A stretch of 64,000 nt of DNA from an uncultured delta proteobacterium (GCA_963827685.1 CAWHBU010000004.1:1-64000), one strand, 5' to 3'; positions 18,263 through 40,024 are shown, numbered from the stretch's first letter. The notes: generated by a model from the letters alone, not told the origin. Numbers and translations are program-made.

Positions 18263-19180
18263 TTATTGGCGCCATGGGCCCGGTGCCCTCCAGGTTGCTT
18301 TGAAAACGTGGCCTGCTGCCAGACGTTGCGCAATTGGTCTGAGAAAGGCAGCGATGCCCGTGACCACTTCGACGAGGTTCTGCGGAACATCTACCAGTCG
18401 GCTTTTACGGACGAACCCACGCCATTGAGCAGCTTTTGTAGGATCCCCGGCAAAGTTGTTCGTTAAGGCAACGGGGTCAGGCTGAATGGTTGTTCCTCGT
18501 GTGGAAAAGGTCTTCGAGATGGCTTTTGCCAGTGTGGCGCCATCGAAGTTAAACTGGCGCGACATGAGCCATATATCAAAGAAGTCTTTCATCCGGCTGT
18601 TCAAGATGCCAAACTTTACCATCGATTCAAACTTCTCGGCGATAGTGCTTTCCCTGCTGTAACCACGAATTCGTGGAGCTGGGAAATCGAGAAGTGTCGG
18701 ATAATTCGTAGGTTCGGGCGAGGGGATGACTATGTCGCCAAAGCCAATATCAAGTTGCATCACGATTTGCGCAGTTTCTAATGACCCCCAAAACCGGACG
18801 CGTATTCCTTCGTACTCGGCGTCCTCCACGATGCGCTCTGCTTCGATCGTTGCTATATCGAAATCAATACCATCGGGCTCCACTTTCTGAAGGCATATTT
18901 CTCTTGTTACCTCAACCATGGTTTCGACCCTGTTGTCGATTCGACCGAGCAGGTCAATGTCCATCGTTGGGCGCGTAAACGGTGCCTCCCATACGGTTAA
19001 CATCAAAGCACCTTTAAGAACGAAGTTGCCGGCATAGCGGGACTTGGATAATCGATAGAGAAAACGTTCCATCGCGAAGTATTGAAGTAGTTCGCTGAAA
19101 GGTCGCCCTCTCTCCCTGGCCTTGCTTAGCAGACGCTGGTGTACAGAAGCGGCGATATTCCTGGGGGGACGTTTCGTCAC
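18263..19180 (-). CDS. abiEii: Type IV TA toxin, AbiEii nucleotidyltransferase
   Basis: ERFLYRLS, FVLKGALML, RPTMDIDLL, AEKF, NSRMKDFFDI. Confidence 0.9.
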   Translation of the reverse strand: MTKRPPRNIAASVHQRLLSKARERGRPFSELLQYFAMERFLYRLSKSRYAGNFVLKGALMLTVWEAPFTRPTMDIDLLGRIDNRVETMVEVTREICLQKVEPDGIDFDIATIEAERIVEDAEYEGIRVRFWGSLETAQIVMQLDIGFGDIVIPSPEPTNYPTLLDFPAPRIRGYSRESTIAEKFESMVKFGILNSRMKDFFDIWLMSRQFNFDGATLAKAISKTFSTRGTTIQPDPVALTNNFAGDPTKAAQWRGFVRKSRLVDVPQNLVEVVTGIAAFLRPIAQRLAAGHVFKATWRAPGPWRQ

Positions 19181-19791
19181 AGCAGTGCCTCAAGGTAAGG
19201 CCGGATCACCTTCTCAACCCGGCACACTCGCGCGATTTGCACGAGACCTTCGGGTTTAAACCGCTTCTTTTCACGGTAAAGCTTAAGTGCTTCGATAGCC
19301 GTATCGAGGCCGATTTTATTTCGATATTTGAAGCAGTCGATGATTGTTTTTTCCGAGCTATAGATGCGTACTGGAACGCCATCTATTTTATGTGTTTGGA
19401 CTCCAAGGGTGAATGCCTGTCCTGAAAACCAGAAGACCCGAATAGGGGGATGACCCAGACGAGGAGTCTCGGTTCCACGCTCCAGAGCGACGTAGACCTC
19501 ATGGGGGACTTGAGTGGTGATCTCATGGTATGCAAGGGCAGAAATAAGACAAATGACACCGCTCGATATCTTCAGGGAGACCGACACGAGGTCCGGATTA
19601 CCGAGTGGAGGCAGATCGGTAAGCCGATAGAGACCTCGATTAAGTTGTTCTATAAGGCCAACTTCCAGCATGGAGTAAAGCATTCGACGGTGAATGCCAG
19701 CTTGAAGGGCTTCGCTCATTCTCAGTACGCCGCCATGACTCCGAAATGTTTTTCTTGCTTTTTCAAACCCATCCTGACTTTTCATCTTCAT
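19177..19791 (-). CDS. abiEi: Type IV TA antitoxin AbiEi
   Basis: RGLYRL, GVICLISALAYHEITTQVP, YSSEKTIIDCFKYRNKIGLD; overlaps abiEii; ATG 19791 follows GAGG. Confidence 0.9.
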   Translation of the reverse strand: MKMKSQDGFEKARKTFRSHGGVLRMSEALQAGIHRRMLYSMLEVGLIEQLNRGLYRLTDLPPLGNPDLVSVSLKISSGVICLISALAYHEITTQVPHEVYVALERGTETPRLGHPPIRVFWFSGQAFTLGVQTHKIDGVPVRIYSSEKTIIDCFKYRNKIGLDTAIEALKLYREKKRFKPEGLVQIARVCRVEKVIRPYLEALL

Positions 19792-19841
19792 CGAACCTCT
19801 CTCATGATACAAATTACTGACACTTGTATATATTTGCAGGT

Positions 19842-19870
19842 ATTATGTCTCAACTCTAGCTAATTGTCAA
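19842..19870 (-). promoter_or_regulatory. sigma70 promoter of the abiE operon
   Basis: Minus strand TTGACA-17 bp-CATAAT. Confidence 0.7.
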
Positions 19871-19914
19871 TGAAAAGCGAGGTTTCGTTCATATTAAGCT
19901 TTAGGGAGAACAAT

Positions 19915-20138
19915 GGGGACATCCTTAAGTTATTCAAGTAACCTTGATGAGACTTCTTAAATTTGTGATGGGCAGTCTCGGGGTAGGCTTGCATTATTCC
20001 AATTCAGGAAAGAATTTCTAACGACTTCCTCGTTCTCTCCGCTAAATCCAAGTTTTTTTGTGCCCTTATCTGTAACCGCCTCGTTGCTGAACTTAATGTC
20101 GTAACATCACGTTCTGTCCGGTTGCTCAGTTGCTCAAG
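19915..20138 (-). mobile_element. Y1/RAYT-like transposase 3'-end remnant, copy 2
   Basis: Minus strand reads LEQLSNRTERDVTTLSSATRRLQIRAQK..DLAER...IGIMQAYP; on + begins GGGGACATCCTTAAGTTATT. Confidence 0.55.
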
Positions 20139-20253
20139 GGGAATAAAGTGTTTTAATTGCCCCGCTACCACACGAAAAAGAAATCGTCATTATCTCCGCA
20201 GGCTCTTCGCATCTGGGGGATGTAATCCGGATACCCCAGGAGATAAAAACTCC

Positions 20254-20282
20254 TTGCTCCCGTGATGGGATCATATTATAAT
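20254..20282 (+). promoter_or_regulatory. higBA promoter with operator palindrome
   Basis: TTGCTC-17 bp-TATAAT containing TCCC-GTGAT-GGGA; ATG 5 nt after the -10. Confidence 0.7.
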
Positions 20283-20287
20283 GTTTT

Positions 20288-20581
20288 ATGCGCATCATCT
20301 CCCGGAAGACCCTTAAAGAATTTTGGGACCAACATCCGGATGCGCAACAACCTTTGCAGGCCTGGTATCATGATACCAAACATGCCTTATGGAAGTCTCC
20401 GACGGATATTAAAGAAGTCTATCGCAATGCCAGTTTTATCGCAAAGAACCGAGTTGTTTTCAATATCAAGGGAAACAAATATAGACTGATCGTAGCAATA
20501 CAGTATGAGTACGGCATCGTGTATATCCGTTTTGTGGGTACACATCGGGAATACGACCGCATAGACGCATCTACGATTTAA
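20288..20581 (+). CDS. higB: HigB-family mRNA interferase toxin
   Basis: MRIISRKTLKEFW..HPDA, RVVFNIKGNKYRLI, YIRFVGTH.EYD. Confidence 0.92.
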   Translation: MRIISRKTLKEFWDQHPDAQQPLQAWYHDTKHALWKSPTDIKEVYRNASFIAKNRVVFNIKGNKYRLIVAIQYEYGIVYIRFVGTHREYDRIDASTI

Positions 20582-20596
20582 TCGGAGGGATTCACC

Positions 20597-20974
20597 ATGA
20601 GAATCAAACCTGTAAAAACAGAGGCAGATTATCATACGGCTCTTAAAGAAATCGAGCGCATCTTTGATGCCGCTCCCGGAACACGGGAAGGAGACCGACT
20701 GGAGGTATTAACAACCCTTGTCGAAGCCTATGAAGAGAAACACGTCCGTATTCCATTGCCCGATCCAATTGAGGCGATCTTGTATTACATCGAGACCAGG
20801 GGACTTACCCGCCGCGATCTTGAACGTTACGTTGGTAGCCGTGCCAGGGTGTCGGAAGTTCTGAACAGGAAAAGGCCCCTGACCATGGAGATGATCCGCA
20901 ATCTCCATAAAGGACTCGGTATACCCGCAGAGGTTTTAATACAGCCGTACCGCACTTTCAAGGACGCTGCTTGA
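20597..20974 (+). CDS. higA: HigA HTH antitoxin
   Basis: IKPVKTEADY..AL, LEVL.TLVEAYE, PDPIEAI, SRARVSEVLNRKRPLT. Confidence 0.92.
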   Translation: MRIKPVKTEADYHTALKEIERIFDAAPGTREGDRLEVLTTLVEAYEEKHVRIPLPDPIEAILYYIETRGLTRRDLERYVGSRARVSEVLNRKRPLTMEMIRNLHKGLGIPAEVLIQPYRTFKDAA

Positions 20975-20990
20975 TTCAAAAACAGCTTCC

Positions 20991-21108
20991 GGGGCAGGTC
21001 TGCAATACTGCAATTCAGGGAAGGGCTTCTAGTAACTTCTTCATTCTCTCCGCTAAATCCAAGTTTTTTTGTGCCCTTATCTGTAACCGCCTCGCTGCTG
21101 AACTTAAT
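20991..21108 (-). mobile_element. Y1/RAYT-like transposase 3'-end remnant, copy 3
   Basis: GGGGCAGGTCTGCAATACTGCAATT...TTCTCTCCGCTAAATCCAAG...CTGTAACCGC...GCTGAACTTAAT, close to copy 2. Confidence 0.55.
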
Positions 21109-21260
21109 GAGATGTTCGTCAGTCAGGTAGAGTGCGGCGACCCGGAATTAAGCAAAGAAGATCCGGCCTTTCGGTATGGTTACTCCGTTTCGGGGGTGAA
21201 ACCGGATTGTGTTAAGCATAAGGTGGGGACCCGTTTGCAACTTCCGCCAAGATTTACCTG

Positions 21261-21290
21261 TTGACAATGGTTAACATGTAGGTTAACATG
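21261..21290 (+). promoter_or_regulatory. Promoter/operator of the RelE-HTH pair
   Basis: TTGACA-17 bp-TAACAT, with tandem GGTTAACATG repeats; GTG start at 21296. Confidence 0.65.
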
Positions 21291-21295
21291 ATTTT

Positions 21296-21595
21296 GTGAA
21301 GAGAAATGTTATCTTCTACAGGACAGTTGATGGCAAATGCCCTGTACAGGATTTTCTGGATTCCCTGCCGGGAAAAGTTGCACAGAAGGCGGGGGGGAAG
21401 CTAATTGGAACCGAGGAGATCTGGGAATGCCGAATTCAATTTGGGTCAAATGCGTATCGTCTATTGTGTTTCTTTTTAAATCGTTCCGTCGTTGTGCTTA
21501 GCCATGGATTTGTGAAAAAGAGTCAAAAGACGCCTGTCCATGAAATAGAAAGGGCAGAAGCTTATCGAAGAGATTTTTTGAAAAGGAGGATATAA
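21296..21595 (+). CDS. RelE/ParE (Gp49/DUF891-like) toxin, apparently internally shortened
   Basis: [19 protein letters not shown]...IWECRI..GSNAYRL..F...[21 protein letters not shown]. Confidence 0.8.
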
Positions 21596-21596
21596 A

Positions 21597-21872
21597 ATGA
21601 GTGATCTTAAAAAATATATAAGGGAGAGGAAGAAGAGGGATAAGGAATTTGCGAAAGGGTTTGACGAGGGGTATGAGCAATTCAAAATCGGAGTCGTACT
21701 CCGTCAGGCACGGGAGAGAGCAGGGTTGACACAAGAAGAATTAGCCCGTCGGCTTAAAACCAAGAAAACCTCCATATCGAGGATTGAAAACCATGCCGAA
21801 GACATCAAGCTTTCGACATTGAAACGTACCGCTTCTGCCTTAGGAAAACGTCTTCAGGTGAGTATTATTTAA
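21597..21872 (+). CDS. XRE-family HTH antitoxin
   Basis: [30 protein letters not shown]; directly follows the toxin. Confidence 0.88.
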
Positions 21873-23541: not shown

Positions 23542-25545
23542 ATGGTGGACTCGGAAAGCAGGAAACTTAATATTAGGAGAGATCGAAGAAACAGGTCACC
23601 TGTCCTACTCTATGGTATCCTTTTTTCAGTTCTACTTTTTTTTATAAATCTTGCCAAACCCACCTTTACCGACTTCCTTCATAATCGAGTTTACGACTCC
23701 CTGCTGTCCGCCGGCACAGGAAAGCCCTCTCCTGTTCCCGTCATCGTTGACATAGATGAAAAAAGCCTCAAACAATACGGCCAATGGCCCTGGCCGCGCT
23801 ATCGGATCGCCATCCTGGTGGACAAACTCAGAAATCTTGGGGCTTTGAGCATTGGCCTTGATATGCTATTCGCAGAAGAGGACAGAACTTCGATTCATTC
23901 GATAAGAAAGGAGATCCTGCGTGACTTTGGAGTCGATCTCGGATTCAGAGGGGTTCCCCAAGGGCTCAGAGACAATGACCAGAGGCTAGCGGAGGCTCTT
24001 TCAAGAGGCCCCTTTCTGTTAGGTTATCAATTCCTGTTCGAAGAAGATTCTAATTCGGAGGACTGCCTGTTACATCCATTACATGTCAACAAAATAGGAC
24101 ACGACAAGGCAGAAAAGGATTCACCCCTGTTCATTCATGCCCGTAGTGTATCCTGTAACCTAAAGATGTTTTCCGAGGCTGCGGCTGGATCCGGTTTCTT
24201 CAATGTTTTGCCGGACTCAGATGGCATCCTGAGACGCGTGCCCTTGATCATTGAACACGGAGGCAAATTGTATCCGAGCCTCGGGTTGGTAACACTGATG
24301 AAGGCTCTGGGTGTACGCGACGTCCTCCTGAAGACCGACACGAGTGGTGTGGAGTCATTATATCTAAACCAAACGGCTGTCCCCCTTACCTCAAAAGGGA
24401 GTATGCTGATCCGTTTTCGCGGGAAAGGTAAAACCTTCGACTATGTCTCAGCGGCAGACATCCTGTCCGATCGCATCCCGGATGGGAAGATACAAGGGAA
24501 AATAGTGTTCGTCGGAACCTCTGCGTCGGGATTGAAAGAGCTCAAATCCACCCCTTTCGATCCCGTTTTTCCGGGGGTGGAGGTTCACGCAACCGTTGTT
24601 GATAATATCCTAAAAAAGGATTTCCTCTCTCGACCGAAATGGGCCGCGGGCCTGGAGTCTGTAGGAATGTTAGTATTAGGCTTGCTTTCCGCATTTATTC
24701 TGGCTTGGACTGGCGCCGCTTGGAGTTCACTTTTCCTTGGAGTCGTCGCGGTGGGCGTTTGGCAGACTTCGGTGTGGATGTTTCGAAACGAAGGCATCTT
24801 CATTTCACCGGTTTTACCCTTGATCGTCTTGGCGTGTAATTTCTCCGTCATTACTTTTTTCAGATTCTGGCAGGAGGAGCAGAGAGTTAAAGAGCGAACT
24901 CGCGAGCTTGCAATGGTTCAGGAGGCAACGATTGAAAGCATGTCCTCGCTGACCGAAACGCGGGATCCGGATACAGGTGGGCATATCAAGCGCACTCAGA
25001 ACTATATCCGGCTTCTCGCCGACTACTTGAAGAATCAACCCAGATTCATTCGATTCCTGGATGACGAAGCCATCGACCTGTTGTGCAAGTCCGCCCCGCT
25101 CCACGATATTGGGAAGGTCGGGGTTTCAGACAGAATCTTGCTGAAGCCCGGCAAACTGACCGACCAAGAATTTGAAGAAATGAAACAACATACGGTTTAC
25201 GGCCGCGATACCATCCTTGTTGCCGAAAGAAAGCTTGGAAATACCTCCTTTCTGCGGATTGCTCGTGAAATTGCTTACACCCACCATGAACGATGGGACG
25301 GGTCTGGATATCCGGAGGGTCTCAAGGGAGAGCAAATTCCGGTACCGGGCAGACTCATGGCTTTGGTCGACACCTACGACGCGTTGACGAGCAAACGGGT
25401 CTACAAATCTCAGCTCCCTCATGAAAAGGCCGTCCAAATCATCATCGAAGCAAAAGGGACACAGTTCGATCCAGCCGTGGTCGACGCCTTCCTAGAGGTC
25501 AAGGAGGATTTCCGTCGGATCGGCCTCAGATATGCTGACGCTTAG
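23542..25545 (+). CDS. CHASE2 sensor + HD-GYP c-di-GMP phosphodiesterase
   Basis: IVDIDEKSL..YGQWPWPR, PDSDGILRRVPL, PGVEVHA, three TM helices, DTGGH..R, APLHDIGK, HHERWDGSGYP.GL.G. Confidence 0.9.
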   Translation: MVDSESRKLNIRRDRRNRSPVLLYGILFSVLLFFINLAKPTFTDFLHNRVYDSLLSAGTGKPSPVPVIVDIDEKSLKQYGQWPWPRYRIAILVDKLRNLGALSIGLDMLFAEEDRTSIHSIRKEILRDFGVDLGFRGVPQGLRDNDQRLAEALSRGPFLLGYQFLFEEDSNSEDCLLHPLHVNKIGHDKAEKDSPLFIHARSVSCNLKMFSEAAAGSGFFNVLPDSDGILRRVPLIIEHGGKLYPSLGLVTLMKALGVRDVLLKTDTSGVESLYLNQTAVPLTSKGSMLIRFRGKGKTFDYVSAADILSDRIPDGKIQGKIVFVGTSASGLKELKSTPFDPVFPGVEVHATVVDNILKKDFLSRPKWAAGLESVGMLVLGLLSAFILAWTGAAWSSLFLGVVAVGVWQTSVWMFRNEGIFISPVLPLIVLACNFSVITFFRFWQEEQRVKERTRELAMVQEATIESMSSLTETRDPDTGGHIKRTQNYIRLLADYLKNQPRFIRFLDDEAIDLLCKSAPLHDIGKVGVSDRILLKPGKLTDQEFEEMKQHTVYGRDTILVAERKLGNTSFLRIAREIAYTHHERWDGSGYPEGLKGEQIPVPGRLMALVDTYDALTSKRVYKSQLPHEKAVQIIIEAKGTQFDPAVVDAFLEVKEDFRRIGLRYADA

Positions 25546-25792: not shown

Positions 25793-27694
25793 CTATGATG
25801 CCACAATCTCCTCGGGGGCAAAAGGAAGATGGATAATGAAGGTGGTTCCAAGGCCCTCTTCACTTTCCACATGAATCTCGCCGCCATGTTGATCCACGAT
25901 TTCTTTAACGATGGTCAGCCCCAAGCCGGTGCCAATGACGTGCTTGACATTTGAGGCTCGAAAGAACTCTGTAAACAAACGAGGTATTTCTTCCCTGGGT
26001 ATTCCAATGCCACTATCACTGAGGACAATGCGGATGGTTTCATTGGCGCCGGACCAAAAGGTCATCCCGATCCGTCCGCCCTCGGGAGTGTATTTGATGG
26101 CGTTCGAAACAAGATTTTCCAGCATCTGTTCGACCATCTCCTGGTCGCCCTTAATCTTGGGCAAATCCTCCGGGACGGTCACGTTGAAGGAGACCCCCTT
26201 TTCGGCTGCCTTTTCCTGGAAGGTTTGGTGGATCCGGTCCGTCACCACTTTGAGGTCTACGGGCCTGCATTCCAGACGCCGTTGTTTGCTTTGACTCTTT
26301 GCCAAGGTCATCAGCTCGTTGATCATGAGGAGCATATTCCGAACCCGTAGGTCAATCCGGTTTAGATGTTTCTGTAGCGCATCATTCAAGTTACCCAGGT
26401 AGCCGTTTTGCACCACCTCGAGCATGCTGGCCAAGGCAGCCAGCGGCGTCCGAAGGTTATGAGCCACTCGATTCATAAACCGCGATCGTTCCTGGACCAG
26501 GTTTTCGATGGCCTCATAAGCTCGGGCGTTCTCAATGGCGATGGCCACCAGCCCGGCTGCCTGACGGAAGAAATTCAATTCATCCGGGCCAAACTGCTCC
26601 GGCCAAGTGGAATAGGCTCCCAAGATACCGATGACGCGGTTTTCCACGATTAAAGGTACGAACTGAACCGATTGCACTCGGGCGGCTTCCAGATCTTCGC
26701 CAAATTGAAAAGACTCCCGCTCGGTCACATGGCCGGTCACGAAGGGTTCGCCCTCAATGACCCTGCGGTTGAGAGGGCTTTTGGCCACCTCTACCACCTT
26801 GTGTTTGAGAAACTCTGCCGGCAATCCGTGCGCTGCAGCAAATTGCAGGAATTTTCCGTCCTCGCTAAGGAGTTTGACCGAGATCGCTTGAACATCCATC
26901 ACGCGAGCGAGCTCCGAGCTCACAATAGTGAGGACCTGTTCGAGATGCTGTTTGGACCCAATGGCCTGGGTCATGGTATAGAGGGTATTGAGCTTGTCAT
27001 TCAGTGTTGTGACTGCCTCGGTCAGTGCGGCCAGATCGAAGATCCTTTTCCCGACCATTCGCATCACGGCCGTGATAGAGATGGCGGTGATGAAGATGAA
27101 ACCGGCAAAAAACCCGAAAATCACGATCAGGTGGAAAGGTTGTTGCCTCAGATCGATGGCCTTTCCTTGAAAGAGCAAATGGTGATGGGGAACCCAACCC
27201 AGGTAGTCCGCGGCAGCCAGCAGGCCCATGCCTGCGGCGGCGATGGCAGCAAAACTGTAAGTGGAACGGCGGGACAGAAAAATAGCAGAAAAGGTGATGT
27301 GGAAGATGAAAAAAAAGATGAACGGGCTCGCCAGGCCGCCTGTGAAATGGATGAGGAGAAACATGGTGCCATAGTCAAAGCCCACCTGCCAGTAGGTGAA
27401 ACGTTCGATAGATTCCTTCTGATGGGTTTCCCTCTTAACCCGCCGGCTCAAAAAAAAGAAAACGACATTGTAGGTCAGAATGAAACCGGCCAACAACAGG
27501 AGGGCACTCGCATTGAACTCGACCCCAATCCAATGGGCGACGGCAATCCCTATCCCCATGCTCACGGGGACGCACCAGCGTAGTTTGATGAACCAGAGTG
27601 TTCTCTCCTTCAGTTCACCCAGGATAATCTTTCTACGCTTGTCGAGTTCATCAGGCAAGTTGAGCAGGCCTGTTCCCTTTGCCGGATCGGCCAT
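25793..27694 (-). CDS. Membrane-bound GAF sensor histidine kinase
   Basis: About 6 TM segments, GAF domain, VAHNLRTPL H-box, NLVSNAIKY, DSGIGIP, FFRA, GTGLGL. Confidence 0.9.
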   Translation of the reverse strand: MADPAKGTGLLNLPDELDKRRKIILGELKERTLWFIKLRWCVPVSMGIGIAVAHWIGVEFNASALLLLAGFILTYNVVFFFLSRRVKRETHQKESIERFTYWQVGFDYGTMFLLIHFTGGLASPFIFFFIFHITFSAIFLSRRSTYSFAAIAAAGMGLLAAADYLGWVPHHHLLFQGKAIDLRQQPFHLIVIFGFFAGFIFITAISITAVMRMVGKRIFDLAALTEAVTTLNDKLNTLYTMTQAIGSKQHLEQVLTIVSSELARVMDVQAISVKLLSEDGKFLQFAAAHGLPAEFLKHKVVEVAKSPLNRRVIEGEPFVTGHVTERESFQFGEDLEAARVQSVQFVPLIVENRVIGILGAYSTWPEQFGPDELNFFRQAAGLVAIAIENARAYEAIENLVQERSRFMNRVAHNLRTPLAALASMLEVVQNGYLGNLNDALQKHLNRIDLRVRNMLLMINELMTLAKSQSKQRRLECRPVDLKVVTDRIHQTFQEKAAEKGVSFNVTVPEDLPKIKGDQEMVEQMLENLVSNAIKYTPEGGRIGMTFWSGANETIRIVLSDSGIGIPREEIPRLFTEFFRASNVKHVIGTGLGLTIVKEIVDQHGGEIHVESEEGLGTTFIIHLPFAPEEIVAS

Positions 27695-27721
27695 GCCTTT
27701 CCTCCAATTCCGGGGCTAAGA

Positions 27722-30700
27722 TCAGCCTCCGGCCAGGATGCCCTCGATCTTAGCCATGAGTTTCTTGGTGTCGACCGGCTTTTCGAACATCCACCGGGCA
27801 GGCCATTCTTCTCCCGTGATGTGCTGGAATTTGTCGGGTCCCTCTTTCCGGACCTTTTCAAGGAAACTGGTTAAGAGGATGATGGGAAGGTCTTTGAACC
27901 CGGGTTTTTTCTTGAGGTCGTAAGCCAAATCAAACCCCTCGGTATCCGTGGCCATCATCACATCCAGGATCATGAGGTCGGGCTTCTTGACTTTCAGTGC
28001 TTCAAGGGCCTCCGTACCGTTTGCTGCGGTCCGAACCGTATAGCCGTAGTTCTCCAAGATGATCAGAAGAGAGTCGCGAAAGTCAGGGTCGTCGTCCACA
28101 AGGAGAATTTCGCCTTTGGTCGCCATGTTGTCTCCTTTTGGGAACGGGTGAGCCGAATCATCAAATCCCCCGGCCGCATCGCAACGCAGGCAACGACAAG
28201 CCTCGGCGCAGGCCATCTCCAAGGTGTAGCCTAATTCCACCTCGCGGAAATCGGTCCGTCGAACCTTCGGCGGGCCTTCCGGCATTGGGATCTGAGGTTG
28301 CTCTACTGGCTCCTCATCCACTCTTAAGGGGATGCCGATCATTTCTTCAGCCGGAGCAATCCATGGCTTCTCTCCATGGGTCACCCGGATGGAAGTATCT
28401 ATTGCACGGGCTGCGGTCTGGCCAGCTTTGATGGCATCAACGACCATCGCAGGCCCCGTGACGACATCTCCGCCAGCCCACACCTTAGCATGGGTTGTAC
28501 GGAGGTTCTTATCCACTTTGACCGTGGTCCGGTTTCTCTCTATACCACTCCCCGTGGACAAAAAATCAAGATCAGCCACGCGGCCAATGGCGAATATTAC
28601 CGTTTCTGCCTTTTCAATGAATTCCGAGCCCAATATCGGCTTGGGTTGCCTCCGGGCACTTTGGTCAAACTTACCGGGTCGTGTCTGGGTCAGTTCGAGC
28701 CCTGTCACCTTCCCATATTGGGTAATCACTCTCACAGGAGCTACCTGAACCATGATCCGTACACCTTCCTCCTCTGCTGCCTTGATGTTCCATGCCTGTA
28801 CTGGCATATCGTTGCGCTCGCGGCGGTAGTAAAGAGTAACCTTTTTCGCCCCCAACCGGATAGCCGTGCGAGCAGCGTCCACGGCTGAGATTCCGCCGCC
28901 GATCACAGCAACCTTTTTGCCCACCTTGATTCCTCTGCCCAGATGGTAAGCCCTGAGAAACTCAACAACACCGAACACCCCTTCGGCATCTTCTCCAGGA
29001 ATGTTTAGAGAAGAACTTTTTTGCGCGCCCGTTGCTAAGTAAATAATATCAAAGCTCCTGTCCAACTCTTCGAAAGTAATATCGCGCCCGACGCGAGTGT
29101 TGGTCTGGAGTTGTACACCGATTTGGAGGATATCTTCAATCTCGCGATCGAGCTCGTTTCGTGGAAGTCTGTAGGCAGGGATGCCCCACCGAAGCATTCC
29201 TCCTGCTTCAGGTAACGCTTCGTAAACGGTGACTCCATATCCTCGTTTCTTAAGCTCCAGGGCAGCGGTGAGCCCTGAGGGCCCTGCACCGATGATAGCG
29301 ACCTTCTCCTTCCGGATGATCGGCAGGGGTTCTGTTTTAGGCCGTTTCGCATTGTCGGTAATGAACCGCTTAAGATGCATGATTGCCACTGGCTCATCGA
29401 GTTGCCCCCGTCGGCATTTCGTCTGGCAGTCATGTCCACAGACTCGACCGCACACGCTTGGAAAGGGATTTGTCCATTTGAGTACTTTGTAAGCGTCGTC
29501 GAGGCGGCCGGCCCGAATCAGGGCGATGTAAGCCGGGGCGTCCATGTCCACGGGACAGAGGTGCTGACAAGGGCTCTTGAAAAGCTCTGAACAGACTGCG
29601 GCAGGACAGCACTTGTCAAGGATGTGAGCTTCGTACTCATGCCGGAAGTAGCGGATGGTGCTCAATATTAGATTCGGCGCGGTTTTACCGAGAGCACAAA
29701 AGGCTGTCTCTCTGATCTTTTGCGCCTGGTCTTCAAGGCCTTCAATATCTCCCTCGCGGCCATTGCCCAGACAGATTCTCTGGAGGATCTCTATCATCCG
29801 CATCGTCTCCACGCGACAGGAGATACTCTTATCACTGGCCTTATCCCGACAGAAATTCATAAAGGAGCGGACCATGTCCACCATGCAGGTATCCTCATCG
29901 ATGACGGTCATGCCGCCAGAGCCCATGATCGCGCCCACCTTCGCGAGGGCATCGTAGTCGATGGGAATGTTTAGGTGCTCCGGAGGTATGCAAGCACCGG
30001 ACGGTCCTCCTAACTGAACGGCTTTAAACTTCTTTCTGCGGGGAATGCCACCACCGATGTCGAAGACAATTTCACCCACGGAGGTACCCATAGGCACTTC
30101 AATCAGGCCGGCGTTATTGACCTTGCCGGTCAGCGAAAAAAGTTTGGTGCCCTTGGACGACTCTGTTCCTATATCGGCATAAGCTTCCCCACCCAGTAGA
30201 ATAATCCGAGGCAGGTTAATATAGGTCTCAGCATTGTTGTGGAGCGTTGGCTTCTTCCATAATCCCAATGCGGCCGGAAGGGGGGGCCGGGGCATGCCAT
30301 GCCCTCCTTCGATCGCACCCATCAAAGCTGTCTTCTCACCACATACGGACACGCCAGCCCCCTGATGTACCTCGATGTCGAAATCGAACCCTGAGTTGAG
30401 AATGTCTTTGCCAAGAAGTCCATGGGCGCGGGCTTGATCAATAGCGAGATTAATTTTCTTCACTGCCAGAGCGTATTCGTCGCGACAATAGATATAACCC
30501 TGGTGAGCCCCGATCGCCTTTGCCGCAATGATCATTCCTTCGAGCACGGCATGAGGGTCTGCTTCCATCACGCTGCGACTCACAAAAGCCGCTGGATCGG
30601 CTTCATCTGCAGCGCAAAGAACATACCTGACATCCTCTCTTGAGTTGGCACAGAATTCCAACATGATCCCGGTGGGAAAGCCACCGTCTCCCCGTCCCCG

Positions 30701-31309
30701 AAGACCTGAGATCTTGACTTCAGAAATAATCTCCGAAGAAGTCATCTCCAGCAGGGCCTTGGCCGCCGCAAGATAGCCGTCGCGCCAGATATAGTCATCG
30801 ATCCGGTCAAGATCAATCAAACCCTTATTATGAAGCACCAAGGATTGCTGAAGGGCAAAAAATTTAAGCTGTGAGATGTGGGGGATGATTCCTTCTAAAG
30901 CCGATTTATTTGGCATTGGTTCTTCGTTGACCGCTTTGCCCCGCGCGAGGGCAAGGTCGACTTGAACCTTGCCGCCCAGCATGTGCTGTTTGAAGATCTG
31001 CTGGGCTTTCTGGTCGTCAACCCGTTGATAGATTACCGGCTCCTGACCCAGGAGTTCCACCGTTACCAACGGCTCCTGGTTACACAGCCCGATACAGCCT
31101 GAGCTACTGACAGCGATATCCGACCGGCCGCATTCCGATATTTCTTGGAGCAATCGATCCATTATGTTCTGGGCGTCTGAAGCAAGTCCGCAGGTACCCA
31201 TGTGAACCGTTATTCTTCCCACGGTGCCGTCCTTGCGGAGTTCTCTTTGCTCCCCGACTCGATTCCTGATGGCCTTTAAATCCTCCAATGTCATCTTCTT
31301 GGCGGCCAT
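27722..31309 (-). CDS. Fusion: Trx-like [2Fe-2S] + degenerate NuoF/HydB + GltD-like FAD oxidoreductase + C-terminal receiver domain
   Basis: AGGAG SD before ATG 31309; VHMGTCG/GCIGLC, SGLRGRGDGGFPTG, QLGGPSG, CQHLCP..VCGHDC, GAGPSG, then ILLVDDD..MILDVMM..LLTS..EKP. Confidence 0.85.
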   Translation of the reverse strand: MAAKKMTLEDLKAIRNRVGEQRELRKDGTVGRITVHMGTCGLASDAQNIMDRLLQEISECGRSDIAVSSSGCIGLCNQEPLVTVELLGQEPVIYQRVDDQKAQQIFKQHMLGGKVQVDLALARGKAVNEEPMPNKSALEGIIPHISQLKFFALQQSLVLHNKGLIDLDRIDDYIWRDGYLAAAKALLEMTSSEIISEVKISGLRGRGDGGFPTGIMLEFCANSREDVRYVLCAADEADPAAFVSRSVMEADPHAVLEGMIIAAKAIGAHQGYIYCRDEYALAVKKINLAIDQARAHGLLGKDILNSGFDFDIEVHQGAGVSVCGEKTALMGAIEGGHGMPRPPLPAALGLWKKPTLHNNAETYINLPRIILLGGEAYADIGTESSKGTKLFSLTGKVNNAGLIEVPMGTSVGEIVFDIGGGIPRRKKFKAVQLGGPSGACIPPEHLNIPIDYDALAKVGAIMGSGGMTVIDEDTCMVDMVRSFMNFCRDKASDKSISCRVETMRMIEILQRICLGNGREGDIEGLEDQAQKIRETAFCALGKTAPNLILSTIRYFRHEYEAHILDKCCPAAVCSELFKSPCQHLCPVDMDAPAYIALIRAGRLDDAYKVLKWTNPFPSVCGRVCGHDCQTKCRRGQLDEPVAIMHLKRFITDNAKRPKTEPLPIIRKEKVAIIGAGPSGLTAALELKKRGYGVTVYEALPEAGGMLRWGIPAYRLPRNELDREIEDILQIGVQLQTNTRVGRDITFEELDRSFDIIYLATGAQKSSSLNIPGEDAEGVFGVVEFLRAYHLGRGIKVGKKVAVIGGGISAVDAARTAIRLGAKKVTLYYRRERNDMPVQAWNIKAAEEEGVRIMVQVAPVRVITQYGKVTGLELTQTRPGKFDQSARRQPKPILGSEFIEKAETVIFAIGRVADLDFLSTGSGIERNRTTVKVDKNLRTTHAKVWAGGDVVTGPAMVVDAIKAGQTAARAIDTSIRVTHGEKPWIAPAEEMIGIPLRVDEEPVEQPQIPMPEGPPKVRRTDFREVELGYTLEMACAEACRCLRCDAAGGFDDSAHPFPKGDNMATKGEILLVDDDPDFRDSLLIILENYGYTVRTAANGTEALEALKVKKPDLMILDVMMATDTEGFDLAYDLKKKPGFKDLPIILLTSFLEKVRKEGPDKFQHITGEEWPARWMFEKPVDTKKLMAKIEGILAGG

Positions 31310-31838
31310 GTCATTCTCCTGATCTCTGTGCAGATACACCCAACAGTTGCGTAAAAAACATTCCAAAAGGTAGTTGGGTGTGCCGGGAAACCTTTACAGC
31401 GGGACCATTGAACGTTTTGGTACTTCGTTTCCAGATAAATTTCAAAGGTCACCTGAGGTCACGTCGCATGTTACCCATAAAACATAGTAAAGAACCGCTT
31501 GGTAAAGGTTGGGAAGCACACTTAACTACCTTTTCAATGCAACATTTGGGTACATTCACGGTTTGTTTCTTTCCCCCGTTTCGCATCATACAGAGGTTCA
31601 CAAGTGGACCAAAATTCTTTCAGAAAGGAAATTTCGACAGGATCGCAAAAAACGATCTTCCTTTCTGTAGGCTTGCGTTAACCGAAACACTTTCAAATTA
31701 ACATTTTGGAGATAAGATCTCAAGACAAATTCGCAATAATAGGGGAGATAAAAAAGCTTAACTCATTAGAATCATTTAGCTCTCAATGCCTCGATATTTT
31801 CCCAAAAATCTGATATGATTTTTTACAGGAGGGTATCT

Positions 31839-33719
31839 ATGGATGTGAAAGAGACGGATGAAATGAGAGAGAAATACCCAGAGAAATTTGTGTCAGAAGA
31901 GAGGATATTCAGCCATATCCATCGAGGGGACAGAATATTTATAGGGACGGGGTGTGGTGAGCCACAATATCTTGTCCTTGCCCTCATCCGTTATGTCGAG
32001 TCTCACCCCACTGCCTTTTATGATGCCGAGGTTTTTCAAGTATGGACCCTTGGCCTTGCTCCTTACGCAGAGGAACGATTCAAATCAAATTTCCGGCATA
32101 ACTCTTTTTTCATTTCGAACAATACGAGAGCGGCGGTCAATCAAGGAGTTGCCGACTATACCCCAATATTTTTGTCGAAGGTTCCAGACTTAATTTGGCG
32201 CGGTCTTGTCCCCATCGATGTCGCTCTCATCCAAACCTCCCCACCCGATGACCATGGCTACATGAGTCTGGGAGTGAGCGTTGATATTGTCAAGGCGGCC
32301 GCAGAAAAAGCTTCCTTGGTGATCGCTCAGGTTAATTCAAATATGCCACGTGTTCACGGAGACGGGTTCATTCATATCGAAGATGTGAATTTTATCATCC
32401 CCCGTGATGAACCGGTATTGGAATATGTTTCCGAAGCAGATAGTGATACGGCCCAGGAGATCGGGAAGTATGTTTCCCGTTTGATCAGGGACGGGGAAAC
32501 CATTCAGGTGGGATACGGAAGCATACCTAATGCGATTCTTTCAAACCTTTATGATAAGAAGCACTTAGGCGTCCACACGGAACTTCTGACGGACGGCATC
32601 GTCACGTTGATGAAAAAGCGTGTGATCGACAATACAAGGAAAAGTATCCATCCCGGAAAGGCCGTCGCTGCATTCTGCATGGGCAGGAAAGAGACCTATG
32701 AATATATCCATGATAACCCCGCCGTTGAATTTAGAACGATCGACTATACGAACAATCCTCTGGTCATCGCCCAGCATCATCGTATGACGGCGATCAACAC
32801 GGCTCTGGAGATTGACCTGACGGGTCAGGCCACTGCGGAATCCATCGGGAAGTTGTTCTATAGTGGGGTCGGAGGCCAGGCTGACTTTATGAGAGGTGCG
32901 GTTTTGTCGCCTGACGGCAAAACCATTCTCGCCATACCATCCACGGCGGAGCGGGGGACTATTTCAAGGATCGTCCCTTTTCTGAAGGAAGGGGCGGGTG
33001 TGACACTTCATCGAGGCGATGTTCAGTACGTGGTGACCGAATATGGGATTGCCTACTTACAGGGGAAGAATGTCCGGGAGCGTGCCATGGAATTAATCTC
33101 CATCTCCCATCCGAAATTCAGACCCTGGCTGATCGAAGAAGCGAAAAAACTCAATCTTATCTATCGAGATCAGGCATTCATCCCGGGAAAGAAAGGGGAA
33201 TACCCCGAGGCCTTGGAAACCCATAGAACGACAAAGACGGGTACGGAGATCCTTCTCCGGCCGGTGAGGATAAGCGATGAGCCTCTCCTCAAAGACTTCT
33301 TCTATTCTCTCTCGGAGAACAGCCTCTACCGCCGGTTTATCTCGGTGAGGAAGGATATGCCCCACGAGCGCCTTCAGGATTTTGTGGCCATTGATTTTAC
33401 ACGAGAGATGGTTATTCTTGCCGCGATTCAAAAAGAAGAAAAGGAAGTGATCGTAGGCGTCGGACAGTTTGGAATTAACCAGGAGATCCATACGGCAGAG
33501 GTTGGATTTGCGGTGAGGGACGATCATCAGAACCAAGGAATCGGAGCAGAGTTACTCTCCTACCTTACCTATCTGGCGAAGAAACAGGGGCTCCTTGGTT
33601 TCGATGCAGAGGTGTTGGTAGAAAACAGGCCCATGCTCCATCTCTTTGAGAAGATGGGATTCGATATCAAGAAGAGGCGCGAGGAAGGGGTGTATGAACT
33701 GGAGATGACGTTCCGATGA
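31839..33719 (+). CDS. Acyl-CoA hydrolase/CoA-transferase (Cat2/ACH1-like) fused to a Pat-like GNAT domain
   Basis: LGVHTELLTDG, SGVGGQADF, VVTEYGIA; C-terminal LRPV..SDEP.L..FF..LS..SLY.RF, QNQGIG, ENRPML.LFEKMGF; SD AGGAGG. Confidence 0.88.
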   Translation: MDVKETDEMREKYPEKFVSEERIFSHIHRGDRIFIGTGCGEPQYLVLALIRYVESHPTAFYDAEVFQVWTLGLAPYAEERFKSNFRHNSFFISNNTRAAVNQGVADYTPIFLSKVPDLIWRGLVPIDVALIQTSPPDDHGYMSLGVSVDIVKAAAEKASLVIAQVNSNMPRVHGDGFIHIEDVNFIIPRDEPVLEYVSEADSDTAQEIGKYVSRLIRDGETIQVGYGSIPNAILSNLYDKKHLGVHTELLTDGIVTLMKKRVIDNTRKSIHPGKAVAAFCMGRKETYEYIHDNPAVEFRTIDYTNNPLVIAQHHRMTAINTALEIDLTGQATAESIGKLFYSGVGGQADFMRGAVLSPDGKTILAIPSTAERGTISRIVPFLKEGAGVTLHRGDVQYVVTEYGIAYLQGKNVRERAMELISISHPKFRPWLIEEAKKLNLIYRDQAFIPGKKGEYPEALETHRTTKTGTEILLRPVRISDEPLLKDFFYSLSENSLYRRFISVRKDMPHERLQDFVAIDFTREMVILAAIQKEEKEVIVGVGQFGINQEIHTAEVGFAVRDDHQNQGIGAELLSYLTYLAKKQGLLGFDAEVLVENRPMLHLFEKMGFDIKKRREEGVYELEMTFR

Positions 33720-34883: not shown

Positions 34884-36860
34884 CTAAAGCCTTTCATCAA
34901 CGAGCTGTTTCACCACGCTTGGATCCGCAAGGGTGGAGGTGTCGCCCAGTTCCTCAATTTTGTCTTCGGCGATCTTTCTCAATATCCTCCTCATGATCTT
35001 GCCGCTTCTTGTTTTAGGAAGGGCATCCGCAAATTGAAGTTTGTCGGGTAACGCGATCGGGCCGATTACCGTCCTCACATGGGCCACCAGGTCTTTCTTG
35101 AGCTTGTCGCTCTTTTCTATGCCGGCCTTCAACGTAACGAAGGCATAGATCCCCTGACCCTTGATATCATGGGGGTAACCGATCACTGCTGCCTCTGCCA
35201 CGGAGGGATGTGACACCAGTGCGCTCTCCACTTCGGCTGTTCCGATTCGATGCCCCGACACGTTGATGACATCGTCGATACGACCCATGAGCCAGTAATA
35301 CCCATCTCCGTCTTTGCGCGCTCCGTCGCCGGTAAAGTACTGCCCCGGAAACATTGAGAAATAGGTATCTTTGAATCTCTTATTGCCTGTATCATTCCAA
35401 AACCCTCTGAGCATGCCAGGCCATGGTCTGGCGATGACAAGAGAACCTCCTTCGTCCGTTCCGCATTCGCTCCCATTCTCCCTGAGGACTTTCGGAACCA
35501 CTCCGAAAAATGGAATCGTGGCCGATCCGGGTTTCAGCGGAGTGACGGGGAGAGGAGAAATCAGATAGCCGCCTGTCTCGGTCTGCCACCAGGTATCCAT
35601 GATCGGGCACTTCTCCTTCCCAACATTCTTGTAGTACCACATCCAGGCTTCCGGATTGATGGGTTCCCCCACGGAACCGAGAATTTTGAGGCTTGAGAGA
35701 TCTCTCTTTTCCACCCACTTTTCGCCCTCTCTCATCAAGGCCCTGATGGCTGTCGGGGCGGTATAAAATTTACTGACCCGGTACCTCTCTACGATCTCCC
35801 AGAAACGGTCAGGATTAGGAAAGGTGGGAACCCCTTCAAACATCAAGCTGGTACCGCCGATTCCAAAGGGACCATACACCACGTAGCTGTGGCCGGTGAC
35901 CCATCCGATATCGGCCGTGCAGAAGAATACGTCGTCGTCTTTGATGTCAAAAACATACTTGAGCGTCTGGGCGCAAAAGACGAGATAACCTGCCGTGGTA
36001 TGAATCACCCCTTTGGGTTTCCCCGTGCTTCCGCTCGTATAAAGGATGAAAAGGATATCCTCGGCATCGACCTTGGCGGGATCGCAATTGGGTGTAATGT
36101 CCCCTTTCGCCATCTCGTCATGCCACCAGACGTCCCTCTCTTTGTCAAAAGGTATCTCGATTCCCATCCGTTTGACAACGATCACTCTCTGGATAGAGGG
36201 GCATTCCTTGAGGGCCTGGTCTGCGCCGACCTTACTCCCGACAGTCTTTCCGCTTCTGTAATAGCCGTCCGCCGTGATCAGGAGCTTTGCTTCGCAATCA
36301 TTAATCCGATCCCTGAGTGCCTCGGCACTAAAGCCTCCAAAGACCACGCTGTGAATCGCTCCTATTCTTGCACAGGCAAGCATAGCAATGGGGAGTTCGG
36401 GAATCATCGGGAGGTAGATGGAGACTCGGTCTCCCTTTTTAACTCCATGCTTTTTCAAGACATTTGCAAACTTGCAGACATGATAGTGGAGCTGCTGGTA
36501 GGTGAAAACCCTGCTCTCCTCGAGAGGTTCGCCCTGCCAGATCAGAGCCGCTTTATTTCCTTTTCCTGCCTTGATATGTCTGTCAAGACAGTTATAGGAT
36601 ACATTCAACTTGCCGCCGACAAACCACTTAAGTTCGGGTTTGTTGAAGTCCCATTCAGAGACCTTCTCCCATTTTTTGAACCATTCGAGCTCATCCGCCA
36701 TCTCACTCCAAAACTCATCAGGCTTGTCAACGGACTTTCGATACAATTTCTTATAATCCGCCATGCTCAAATACGCCTGCTTCTTGATCTCCTCAGAAGG
36801 CTCAAAGACCCGGCTCTCCTCCATCATGGAAACAATATTACCTTTACCTTTCTCGGTCAT
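34884..36860 (-). CDS. acs: Acetyl-CoA synthetase (AMP-forming)
   Basis: [61 protein letters not shown] with the acetylatable Lys. Confidence 0.97.
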
Positions 36861-37316: not shown

Positions 37317-37673
37317 ATGTTGATTGAATATCTTGCCATTCTCATCTATATTGCCATCGCTGTTGTTTTTGCCCTCTTCGCCATCGTCGCTTCCGCTCTC
37401 TTAGGCCAGAGAAAACCCACCGCTCTCAAGCAGGCACCCTATGAGTGCGGGATGACGACCGTTGGCTCAAGCTTCCGCAGGATACCCATCAAGTACTACA
37501 TCATCGCCATGCTTTTTCTCCTCTTTGATATTGAGGTGGTTTTCCTCTATCCCTGGGCAGTGGTCTTCAAAGAGTTTAAGGTCTTTGCCTTCATCTCAAT
37601 GGCGGTCTTCATTGGAATTTTACTCATCGCCTATATCTACATCTGGAAAAAAGGAGCATTGGAATGGGAATAG
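37317..37673 (+). CDS. nuoA: Complex I subunit A
   Basis: [38 protein letters not shown]. Confidence 0.97.
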
Positions 37674-38170
37674 AAACTTACCTTGAAAAAACGGCTTTTA
37701 TGCCTGCTTTGGATTGGCTCGTCAACTGGGGTCGAAAGTATTCGATCTGGCCGGTGACCTTTGGCTTAGCCTGCTGCGCACTGGAGATGATTGTCACCAG
37801 TTCAGCGACGTGGGATATCTCTCGGTTTGGTTCAGAGGTTTTCAGGCCTTCCCCCCGGCAGGCAGATTTGATGATCGTTGCAGGGACCTTGACCAAAAAG
37901 ATGGCTCCTATGGTTAAACGCATCTATGAACAAATGCCAGAGCCCAAATGGGTCATTGCTTATGGAGCCTGTGCCTGCTCAGGCGGAATCTTCAAAACCT
38001 ACAGTGTGGTGCAGGGAGTGGATCAAATACTACCTGTGGACTTCTATGTCCCAGGTTGTCCACCCAGACCTGAAGCTTTGCTCACAGCGATTGTGAAGCT
38101 CCAGAAGAAGATCGAGAAAGAGACGCTTGCGAATCGAAAGAACGTTCGCAGCACCCTTGAACTGAAATAA
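37664..38170 (+). CDS. nuoB: Complex I subunit B
   Basis: [34 protein letters not shown]. Confidence 0.97.
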
Positions 38171-38186
38171 GGATAAGAGGAAAAGA

Positions 38187-38675
38187 ATGGCCGAAATCAA
38201 TCTCACGGTAAAGAAGTTGCAGGGGAAATTCCCGGCCTCCGTCTTGGAGGTAAAGACATTTCGGGATGAGGTCAACGTCACCGTTCAGAAGAAAGACATT
38301 TTTGAAATCTGTAAATTTCTTTATTCCGATCCAGATCTCCAATACCGGATGCTCACCGACCTCTGCGGCGTGGATTTCTTTCCAGAGTCCCCCCGTTTTG
38401 AAGTGGTTTATCTTCTCTATTCGATGAAGGAACAGCAAAGGCTGAGACTGAAAATAAAAGTTGGCGATTCTGAATCGGTTTTAAGTGTGGAGTCCATCTG
38501 GAAAGCAGCCGACTGGTTGGAAAGGGAGGTCTATGACCTCTTTGGGATTTCCTTTGACAACCATCCCGATTTGAGGAGAATTCTCCTCTGGGATGGTTAC
38601 GAGGGTCATCCCTTGAGAAAGGATTTTCCGGTCGAGGGACCGGATTTTGACAAACCCTTCGTTCCCGAGGTTTGA
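38187..38675 (+). CDS. nuoC: Complex I subunit C
   Basis: WLEREVYDLFGI.F..HPDLRRILL...GHPLRKDFP. Confidence 0.97.
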   Translation: MAEINLTVKKLQGKFPASVLEVKTFRDEVNVTVQKKDIFEICKFLYSDPDLQYRMLTDLCGVDFFPESPRFEVVYLLYSMKEQQRLRLKIKVGDSESVLSVESIWKAADWLEREVYDLFGISFDNHPDLRRILLWDGYEGHPLRKDFPVEGPDFDKPFVPEV

Positions 38676-38676
38676 A

Positions 38677-39849: not shown

Positions 39850-39852
39850 AAG

Positions 39853-40013: not shown

Positions 40014-40024
40014 GTGAGGTACAC

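Follow-up and report, generated by a model that had tools for sequence, protein, structure and literature searches.

A candidate hydrogenase-derived relic flavoprotein fused to a receiver domain and adjacent to a histidine kinase in an uncultured delta proteobacterium

What keeps a flavoprotein in existence when the motifs of its flavin and nucleotide sites have degenerated, and why should such a protein end in a receiver domain next to a sensor kinase? The question is raised by a gene on the minus strand (27725..31309) of a 64,000-nucleotide stretch of DNA from an uncultured delta proteobacterium (GCA_963827685.1, CAWHBU010000004.1:1-64000), which is called the window throughout. The gene codes for a protein of 1195 residues, in which a HydB (NuoF)-type flavoprotein, a GltD-type module and a receiver (REC) domain follow one another. 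The original prediction, made from the DNA alone, saw in it an enzyme subunit repurposed either as a redox or NAD(P)H sensor in two-component signalling or as a phosphorylation-gated oxidoreductase. The explanation that best covers all of the observations, and which we hold to be somewhat more probable than its negation, is that of a hydrogenase-derived relic flavoprotein that forms one unit with a two-component pair.

The open frame spans 27722-31366 on the minus strand, and an ATG at 31309, preceded by GGAG, sets the start of the 1195-residue protein, after which residues are numbered. It is intact, as had been predicted, and is supported by full-length orthologues, the open frame and Pfam. 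The N-terminal domain (residues 1-130; 30920..31309) is of the thioredoxin (Trx)-like [2Fe-2S] type and was recognized by aligning it with the N-terminal domains in solved HydB/HoxF structures. It is followed by the NuoF domain for flavin mononucleotide (FMN) and NADH, with degenerate motifs (residues 196-370; 30200..30724; Pfam Complex1_51K at 198-367, E 2.6e-36), by an SLBB-like middle domain that scores below the Pfam cut-off (residues 371-475; 29885..30199), and by the NADH_4Fe-4S domain of the N3/B1 cluster, in which two of the four cysteines are now serines (29615..29884; Pfam at 478-562, E 6.2e-22). The GltD/NfnB-type module (residues 566-1045; 28175..29614) consists of Fer4_20 with 2x[4Fe-4S] (570-656, E 6.9e-24), two Rossmann domains for flavin adenine dinucleotide (FAD) and NAD(P)H (Pyr_redox_2 at 669-963, E 3.7e-35) and a Cys-bearing tail. 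It is of the PRK12771/gltA type in NCBIfam and scores below the cut-offs of all named equivalogs. Residues 33-579 match the HydB-like chains 8oh5_B, 7t2r_B and 7q4v_B (phmmer, E down to 2e-172), and the GltD part, residues 578-1050, matches subunit A of 9bov, 8oh5 and 9n5u. The protein thus has the architecture of a sub-type I BfuB, with Fer4_20/DPD_II and a pyridine-nucleotide-disulphide-type FAD/NAD(P) domain after N3. In this sub-type of the group A3 hydrogenases, the C-terminal ferredoxin domain of BfuB is replaced by DPD_II (2x[4Fe-4S]) and a FAD/NAD(P) domain, as described in PMC11406978 (mSystems 2024).

The receiver (residues 1062-1195; 27725..28126) matches receivers in the PDB and the Pfam profile Response_reg (1068-1152, E 2.4e-17, 63.5 bits at a cut-off of 30.2, profile positions 1-82 of 111). 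Assigned by eye, DDD 1072-1074 is the predicted acidic pocket, D1116 the predicted phospho-acceptor, and T1147 and K1177 the predicted Thr and Lys of such domains. The fused-gene stop is separated by 27 nucleotides from the ATG of a sensor histidine kinase of 633 residues (25793..27694, minus strand), for which Pfam finds a six-transmembrane (6TM) PilS-like part, GAF, HisKA and HATPase_c. The terminal receiver and the closely following kinase had both been foreseen in the original prediction.

Homologues were collected by a word-indexed search, in which 8000 candidates were scored and the best 120 listed. Column and ligand counts refer to an alignment of 121 rows from which 10 fragments were removed, leaving 111 full-length ones. 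Among these rows are 29 proteins of the fused clade, 28 full-length receiver-less proteins with degenerate motifs, and 54 canonical proteins. A position is called invariant when it is at least 95% invariant in the 54 canonical homologues. Genomes were compared for 55 species of the order to which the window belongs (G-numbers), and neighbourhoods within ±8 kb around fused genes and their unfused relatives (L-numbers for loci and contigs). Among the matches listed are 29 full-length fused protein clusters and 33 clusters with the receiver profile PF00072, each of the latter 70-92% identical to the query; from about 75% identity down, NuoF::GltD proteins of about 1050 residues without a receiver follow among the matches listed. 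Full-length fused orthologues occur in 8 of the 55 genomes, namely G000, six further members of its genus and a single species of a different one, with 75-81% identity in the seven other genomes.

Alignment to 8oh5_B, 7t2r_B and 7q4v_B confirmed the motif substitutions which had been listed from the DNA. The window protein has GRGDGGF where the solved chains have GRGGAGF or GRGGGGF, and CAADEADPAAF where they have CNADEGDPGAF. At the third FMN/NADH motif it has GAGVSVCGEKTAL against GAGAFVCGEETAL in the solved HydB/HoxF chains, with GVSVCGEKTAL in place of GAFVCGEETAL. We take the motifs GRGGxGF, NADEGDPGAF and CGEETAL to be the FMN/NADH-binding sites of NuoF-type subunits. All 29 fused-clade proteins among the matches listed deviate from them, and G208 has been changed to D, N or E in 28. 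In the cluster domain, DKASDKSISCR stands against ESCGKCxxCR; S492 and S495, both encoded by AGT, replace two of the four cysteines, and the window protein has thus lost the four-Cys ligation of the N3/B1 [4Fe-4S] cluster (C492S, C495S). Within the fused clade (n=29), 38% of the proteins retain C492 and 55% retain C495, compared to 93-97% for C498 and C538. Because some fused orthologues (L030-L034) still possess all four B1 cysteines, their loss is later than the change in the FMN loop. The substitutions are concentrated where the original prediction had placed them: 34 of the 162 invariant positions in the FMN and N3 domains are altered in the window protein, compared to 12 of 181 in the Trx-like domain, linker, Fer4_20, GltD and tail, with SLBB left out (odds ratio 3.7, Fisher p = 1e-4).

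The sites which had been described as retained are indeed conserved throughout the fused clade. C40, C72, C76 and H109 of the Trx-like domain as well as C475, H562, C568 and C573 of the C/H/C/C site are kept in 97-100% of the 29 proteins, the eight cluster cysteines of Fer4_20 and tail and the FAD motif GxGxxG in all of them, and YYRR of the second Rossmann domain is retained. The proportion of canonical-invariant columns kept by the clade rises from 41% in the FMN domain, 42% in N3 and 57% in SLBB to 77% in GltD, 88% in Fer4_20, 93% in the C-terminal tail and 100% in the Trx-like domain (10 of 10 columns). In the NAD(P)H-site motif GGGN, N807, conserved at 95% or more among the canonical proteins, is replaced by Ile in the window (nucleotides 28889-28891).

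The origin of this protein becomes apparent from four genomes (G006, G045, G002 and G042) with a syntenic operon in the order hydC, hydB::gltD, hydA, REC, histidine kinase, hydG. The locus shares one flank, which carries acetyl-CoA synthetase (Acs), a 266-residue unknown and acetyl-CoA hydrolase/GNAT. The first gene of the operon codes for a NuoE/HydC-type 2Fe-2S protein, and the second for a NuoF::GltD protein of 1026-1062 residues that is 68-72% identical and ends 2-8 residues past ..RCD. The third gene codes for an [FeFe]-hydrogenase of 575-582 residues (Fe_hyd_lg_C, E 1e-103, plus the small-subunit domain). A separate receiver of 134 residues, with the N-terminus M(A/T)(T/I)KGEILLVDDD, is encoded by the fourth gene, the kinase by the fifth, and a radical-SAM/BATS protein resembling HydG by the sixth. 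The question of whether homologues beside the same kinase share the substitutions thus has a divided answer: the HydB motifs are degenerate in all eight fused genomes and canonical in all four unfused orthologues.

The operon-type loci also vary at their distal end. The genes for the kinase and for the HydG-like radical-SAM protein of G006 and G045 form a single open frame of 1154 and 1160 residues (L037 2247-5648 and L038 2460-5933, both minus strand), in which Pfam finds 6TM_PilS, GAF, HisKA, HATPase_c, Radical_SAM and BATS. In G002 and G042 the two genes are separate, either overlapping by 11 nucleotides or lying 13 nucleotides apart.

No hydC or hydA partner is adjacent to the fused gene, as had been noted originally, and a tblastn search of the window and of L030-L036 found no remnants of hydC, hydA or hydG; the matches were the N-terminus of a nuoG-like gene and others at chance level. 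The own genome (94.5% complete) does not contain Fe_hyd_lg_C (PF02906), for which control genomes gave matches, and it has no match to HydG. Among the 55 genomes PF02906 occurs in six, five of them at the syntenic hyd locus, and in none of the eight fused genomes.

The junction itself retains traces of the former arrangement. As the unfused orthologues end shortly past ..RCD, residues 1046-1061 (28127..28174) represent a 16-residue linker from the deletion of hydA, and this leads directly into the old start codon of the receiver. By eye, its distal part resembles the former spacer between hydA and REC, and the window receiver is 68-84% identical to the stand-alone receiver of the operon-type genomes. 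Spacer comparison shows a retained Shine-Dalgarno sequence within the frame, AAAGGAGA (28131..28138), 4 nucleotides upstream of the original ATG of REC (28124-28126). The pattern AAAGGAGG/AAAGGAGA plus ATG occurs in 10 of 11 fused genes as well as in pattern-matching unfused genes, and it is conserved also at synonymous positions.

Judged by synteny and domain order, the window gene evidently goes back to a BfuB/HydB subunit that belonged to a group-A3-like [FeFe]-hydrogenase, and the deletion of hydA is seen to have joined hydB::gltD in frame to a formerly stand-alone receiver. The same comparison indicates clearly that hydC, hydA and hydG were deleted in the lineage of the window, the genome of which is now apparently devoid of [FeFe]-hydrogenase. 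After the deletion, the NADH/FMN site and then, in the sub-lineage of the window, the adjacent [4Fe-4S] site evidently lost constraint.

Is the fused gene then on its way to becoming a pseudogene? Eleven DNA copies were available, from eight genomic orthologues and three metagenome loci, and no stop codon was found in these or in the 29 full-length protein clusters. For the eight genomic orthologues (mean dS 0.66), the pairwise ratio of nonsynonymous to synonymous substitution (dN/dS), computed by NG86, is 0.17 overall. By domain it is 0.19 for Trx, 0.22 for the FMN domain, 0.13 for SLBB, 0.25 for N3, 0.12 for Fer4_20 and 0.15 for GltD. The values for REC (0.08) and for the junction (residues 1051-1066; 0.48) come from fused sequences only, the unfused rows having no REC in the alignment. 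Neighbouring genes, computed without the acetyl-CoA hydrolase-GNAT row, are at 0.10-0.16, with the kinase at 0.14. Maximum-likelihood (ML) omega values (GY+F3X4) for the 11 fused sequences reach 0.27 in Trx and 0.26 in the NuoF core, with 0.22 in GltD and 0.14 in REC, while those for six operon-type sequences are 0.08 for Trx, 0.026 for the NuoF core and 0.065 for GltD. Relative to the operon type, omega has risen about ten-fold in the NuoF core and about three-fold in the rest, which are rough figures as dS is saturated in the operon-type set (undefined by NG86 in 3-5 of 6 pairs); the same reservation applies to the NG86 value of 0.035 for the FMN domain of operon-type genes, compared to 0.22 in fused ones. 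Stops, frameshifts and a dN/dS near 1, the marks of a pseudogene, are all absent: the fused gene is not a pseudogene, and the whole frame is under purifying selection. The original prediction had named two joint signs of a decaying pseudogene, homologues with intact motifs plus a separate receiver gene, and a dN/dS near 1. These two come apart, since such homologues do exist and represent the ancestral state, while dN/dS is 0.17 by NG86 and 0.22-0.27 by ML and the frame is free of stops.

The loss of hydA is not confined to the fused clade. Two trees were computed, one from residues 1-1045 and one from the non-relaxed parts only (residues 1-195 and 566-1045). In both, the fused clade is one group (support 98), which includes P0035, a probably truncated fused protein of 1078 residues, and it nests with 16-17 of the degenerate receiver-less proteins (clade support 99-100). 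Further degenerate lineages, the P0081/P0084 group and P0079, stand among canonical proteins. Metagenome contigs could be assigned to three such receiver-less lineages: L127, L128 and L144, which match P0071 (98%), P0036 (92%) and P0059 (87%), to lineage B, L134, which matches P0084 (100%), to lineage C, and L136, which matches P0079 (100%), to lineage D. On all five contigs hydA has been lost and a separate receiver lies 32-146 bp past HydB::GltD, with the kinase following wherever the contig extends far enough (L128, L134, L136 and L144). L128 retains the last 52 codons of hydA, and hydC is frameshifted in L136. Recurrently hit positions in the hydA-less lineages are G205, G208, N233 and N807; the last is replaced in every one of them, by I or L in the fused clade, I in B, I, T or H in C, and D in D. 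It thus appears well established from these trees and contigs that hydA has been lost and the FMN loop ruined in no fewer than three lineages that stand apart on the trees, all of which still have HydB::GltD, REC and kinase. A scan of genome contigs with P0054, which is degenerate and unfused, matched operon-type metagenome-assembled genomes of Syntrophaceae and distant phyla and found no close genome of that lineage.

Across the genomes, HydB::GltD, REC and kinase are kept together or broken together. An intact kinase orthologue occurs in exactly those 12 of the 55 genomes that have an intact HydB::GltD; the kinase is broken in G053, where hydB is broken too, and in G051, is a contig-end fragment in G054 and is absent from the other 40. 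In the loci compared, REC is in every case followed directly by the kinase. A REC-kinase pair is missing from all of the about 30 distant sub-type I loci examined (42-47% identity; Spirochaetes, Verrucomicrobiota and others), so that among the loci covered it accompanies this enzyme type only in the lineage of the window.

One locus was found in a state of decay. In L041 (G053:C63), which is of the operon type, hydB::gltD is interrupted by TGA codons and frameshifts. The kinase gene is fragmented there and the genes for HydG and acetyl-CoA hydrolase are shortened, with hydA (596 residues) and REC (134 residues) still open; an assembly error may be the cause. Selenocysteine was considered for the TGA codons in G053 and G051 and rejected, as frameshifts and other stops occur alongside.

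What, then, could be the function of the surviving protein? We infer that HydB::GltD, REC and kinase form one working unit, and the fused protein is most likely a phosphorylation-controlled NADPH/Fe-S module. The membrane GAF kinase would phosphorylate the receiver, and this, tethered in the window and free in the sister lineages, would control how electrons flow via the NADPH-FAD-[4Fe-4S] module that survives, for which the dead NuoF core would be a scaffold. The whole would be a response regulator, the effector part of which is a relic iron-sulfur flavoprotein. We favour such a receiver-controlled module because a domain attached to a receiver is normally the effector, because the kinase has input domains of its own, and because a GltD module can work without an FMN domain. 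For the latter there is a precedent in the same genome, a 650-residue protein from the nuo operon (N3 plus Fer4_20 plus Pyr_redox_2). Several observations weigh against this proposal. As no hydA-less lineage has kept N807, the NADPH site may have suffered too, and omega is raised in every domain, so that relaxation is general and extends beyond the dead site, though this comparison is weakened by the saturation of dS. The internal Shine-Dalgarno sequence and ATG indicate that REC may still be made in free form and its tethering may be incidental; HydB::GltD and REC are separate genes in lineages B, C and D, and the linker is a small mutational target. Joint loss of neighbouring genes can result from single deletions and is thus weak evidence of coupling. 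Finally, the module is dispensable, being missing from 40 of the 55 genomes and in decay in G053 and G051. Because the start signals of REC have been kept and the sister lineages are unfused, the fusion itself may be incidental, and the lasting unit may be HydB::GltD plus REC plus kinase rather than the fusion.

The main rival reverses the direction of the signal. The relic flavoprotein would be the input, a sensor of redox state or NAD(P)H: the redox state of its FAD and Fe-S centres, set by NADPH or ferredoxin, would alter phosphorylation or dephosphorylation of REC or the grip of the kinase, and the pair would report the cellular redox state to a target elsewhere. It is true that the cofactor sites which have been retained are those able to read a redox state while the catalytic NADH/FMN entry is dead, that the operon has no DNA-binding or enzymatic output besides the fused protein, and that the change of N807 could tune nucleotide binding without abolishing it. 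An omega of about 0.2-0.27, above that of the enzyme-bound ancestor, would also fit the looser constraint on binding or sensing. However, a receiver-attached domain is normally an output, the kinase already has GAF and membrane input domains, and no downstream target is identifiable; the caveat of the internal REC start applies here, too. We therefore regard a sensor as unlikely. It is also conceivable that two unrelated survivors have been left side by side, a HydB::GltD protein acting as a free NADPH:ferredoxin-type oxidoreductase or in another complex, and an independent REC-kinase pair, with adjacency and common frame due solely to the deletion of hydrogenase genes and functional REC made from the internal start. 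The conserved internal start in 10 of 11 fused genes and the separate genes in lineages B, C and D agree with this, partners could be supplied by other HydB-like and GltD-bearing proteins of the genome, and an accidental in-frame join through a 16-codon linker, a small target with a dN/dS of 0.48, could persist unselected. Yet hydC, hydA and hydG have been cleanly removed, with the other three genes left adjacent, in at least three separate lineages. Among the 55 genomes there is none with an intact kinase but no intact HydB::GltD, or the reverse, and in G053 and G051 both are broken. As REC-kinase is not a generic neighbour either (0 of about 30 distant sub-type I loci), we consider mere adjacency to be quite unlikely.

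Very improbable, by comparison, is a slowly decaying relic, a functionless protein with a frame that is open by luck or because its translation aids the expression of REC and kinase. The fused gene is certainly less conserved than its surroundings (75-81% amino acid identity versus 83-96% for kinase, CHASE2-HD protein and acetyl-CoA hydrolase), its catalytic motifs differ from species to species, omega is raised in all domains, and decay of the locus is plain to see in G053 and G051. But dN/dS is 0.12-0.27 in every domain, which is far from 1, and a need for read-through alone would not constrain amino acid changes. By our estimate, a neutral frame of 3.6 kb should have gathered many stops at a dS of about 0.66, compared to none in 11 DNA copies and 29 clusters, and 17 Cys/His ligands outside the B1 site have been kept at 97-100%. 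Decay is thus largely refuted. As to the original prediction of a repurposed enzyme subunit, its anatomy of domains and motifs stands, the origin through a deletion of hydA had escaped it, and both of the roles that it offered, sensor and gated enzyme, are among the readings weighed above. That a hydrogenase flavoprotein subunit was taken over as a two-component partner, be it as redox input or as phosphorylation-switched output, following at least three independent hydrogenase losses, is a joint reading that we advance tentatively and with more doubt than confidence. By extension of that reading, the stand-alone REC encoded in the intact operons would act post-translationally, docking on the bifurcating hydrogenase and regulating it.

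Parts of this arrangement are familiar from other systems. StnABC and NfnABC (8oh5, 9bov, 9n5u), which are Bfu-type NADH/NADPH/ferredoxin transhydrogenases, are the best solved matches, with HydB-like chains that match residues 32-579, and also combine both nucleotide modules without an H-cluster. They differ in having the GltD module on a HydA-like subunit, an intact FMN site and a NuoE-like subunit, and they have no receiver. CheB, PleD and RpfG are response regulators with enzymatic effector domains and an N-terminal receiver. As in these, the window receiver is joined to a non-DNA-binding domain of enzyme type with a kinase adjacent, and the PleD receiver is a weak match. In contrast to them, the receiver is C-terminal, the effector is a multi-cofactor relic of 1045 residues, and the two were joined by a recent deletion with the receiver's own start kept. 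Sensory proteins of group C, with PAS and kinase-type domains, are HydA-derived, keep the H-cluster domain and accompany a working hydrogenase. The window protein, like these, is a hydrogenase-derived Fe-S protein coupled to phospho-signalling parts, but its source is the flavoprotein subunit, and it has outlived the hydrogenase. Such [FeFe]-hydrogenase-derived sensory proteins, BfuT/group C3, are mentioned in PMC11406978. The nuo-operon protein of 650 residues also combines GltD with the NuoF cluster domain and is 36% identical to residues 437-1049; it differs by having neither the FMN nor the Trx-like domain, by its position between nuoD and a nuoG-like gene, and by having no receiver.

The intact parent type, sub-type I BfuB, is already known from genome analysis (PMC11406978), and up to residue 1045 or so the window protein has the same architecture (Trx-like, FMN, SLBB, N3, DPD_II/Fer4_20, FAD/NAD(P)). 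It differs in that the FMN/NADH motifs and two B1 cysteines are gone, neither the locus nor the genome has HydA, HydC or HydG any longer, and the protein has a receiver attached with a kinase next in line. The passages of the paper that were consulted describe the sub-type I BfuB proteins as intact enzymes, and a REC-kinase pair in such operons is not mentioned there. We found no description of the FMN-dead form, of its persistence past the loss of the hydrogenase, or of a link to receiver and kinase in the open-access literature searched.

Several other features of the window were annotated. Divergent from the fused gene is an acetyl-CoA hydrolase/transferase::GNAT gene, beside that for the 266-residue protein without family and that for acetyl-CoA synthetase (31815-33719, plus strand, and 34884-36860, minus strand). 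These three genes border the locus in almost every relative, whether the hydrogenase is present or not. Convergent with the kinase is a gene for a CHASE2 and HD-GYP-type protein (23542-25545, plus strand), which shows 96% identity among those three fused genomes in which it falls within ±8 kb, far above the conservation of the neighbours. The nuo operon (37317-45849, plus strand) contains nuoA, B, C, D ... nuoH and is without nuoE or nuoF. Its 650-residue NADH_4Fe-4S plus Fer4_20 plus Pyr_redox_2 protein (40025-41977) has its gene flanked by nuoD on one side and, on the other, by a nuoG-like gene in which the molybdopterin domain is complete, and this makeup suggests a complex I that may be fed through NADPH/FAD. 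At 404-6927 (plus strand) are genes for a [NiFe]-hydrogenase large subunit, for a HycI-type maturation protease and for a protein of 1418 residues that combines Fer4_20/GltD-type parts, second FAD-binding (HdrA-like) parts and a 4Fe-4S dicluster end. The organism thus probably keeps nickel hydrogenase capacity despite the loss of the [FeFe] enzyme. Three toxin-antitoxin-like pairs lie at 18263-21872, AbiEii/AbiEi (minus strand), a HigB toxin with an HTH protein, and a Gp49-like protein with an HTH protein; a HEPN/RES-domain protein is encoded further upstream (15260-16315).

For annotation these genes are a warning, as they carry the name 'NADH-quinone oxidoreductase subunit F' despite the loss of the NADH site and the absence of [FeFe]-hydrogenase from the genome. 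Each stage of a stepwise series is found in real genomes, from the full operon via hydA-less separate genes and in-frame fusion to the loss of cluster cysteines, and the series shows a multi-cofactor subunit turning into a half-dead protein that is still kept by selection. If the coupling is true, this would represent a new type of effector or input for two-component signalling. It would also suggest that electron-bifurcating hydrogenases are under direct phospho-control in syntroph-like bacteria, for which the balance of hydrogen and NAD(P)H is central.

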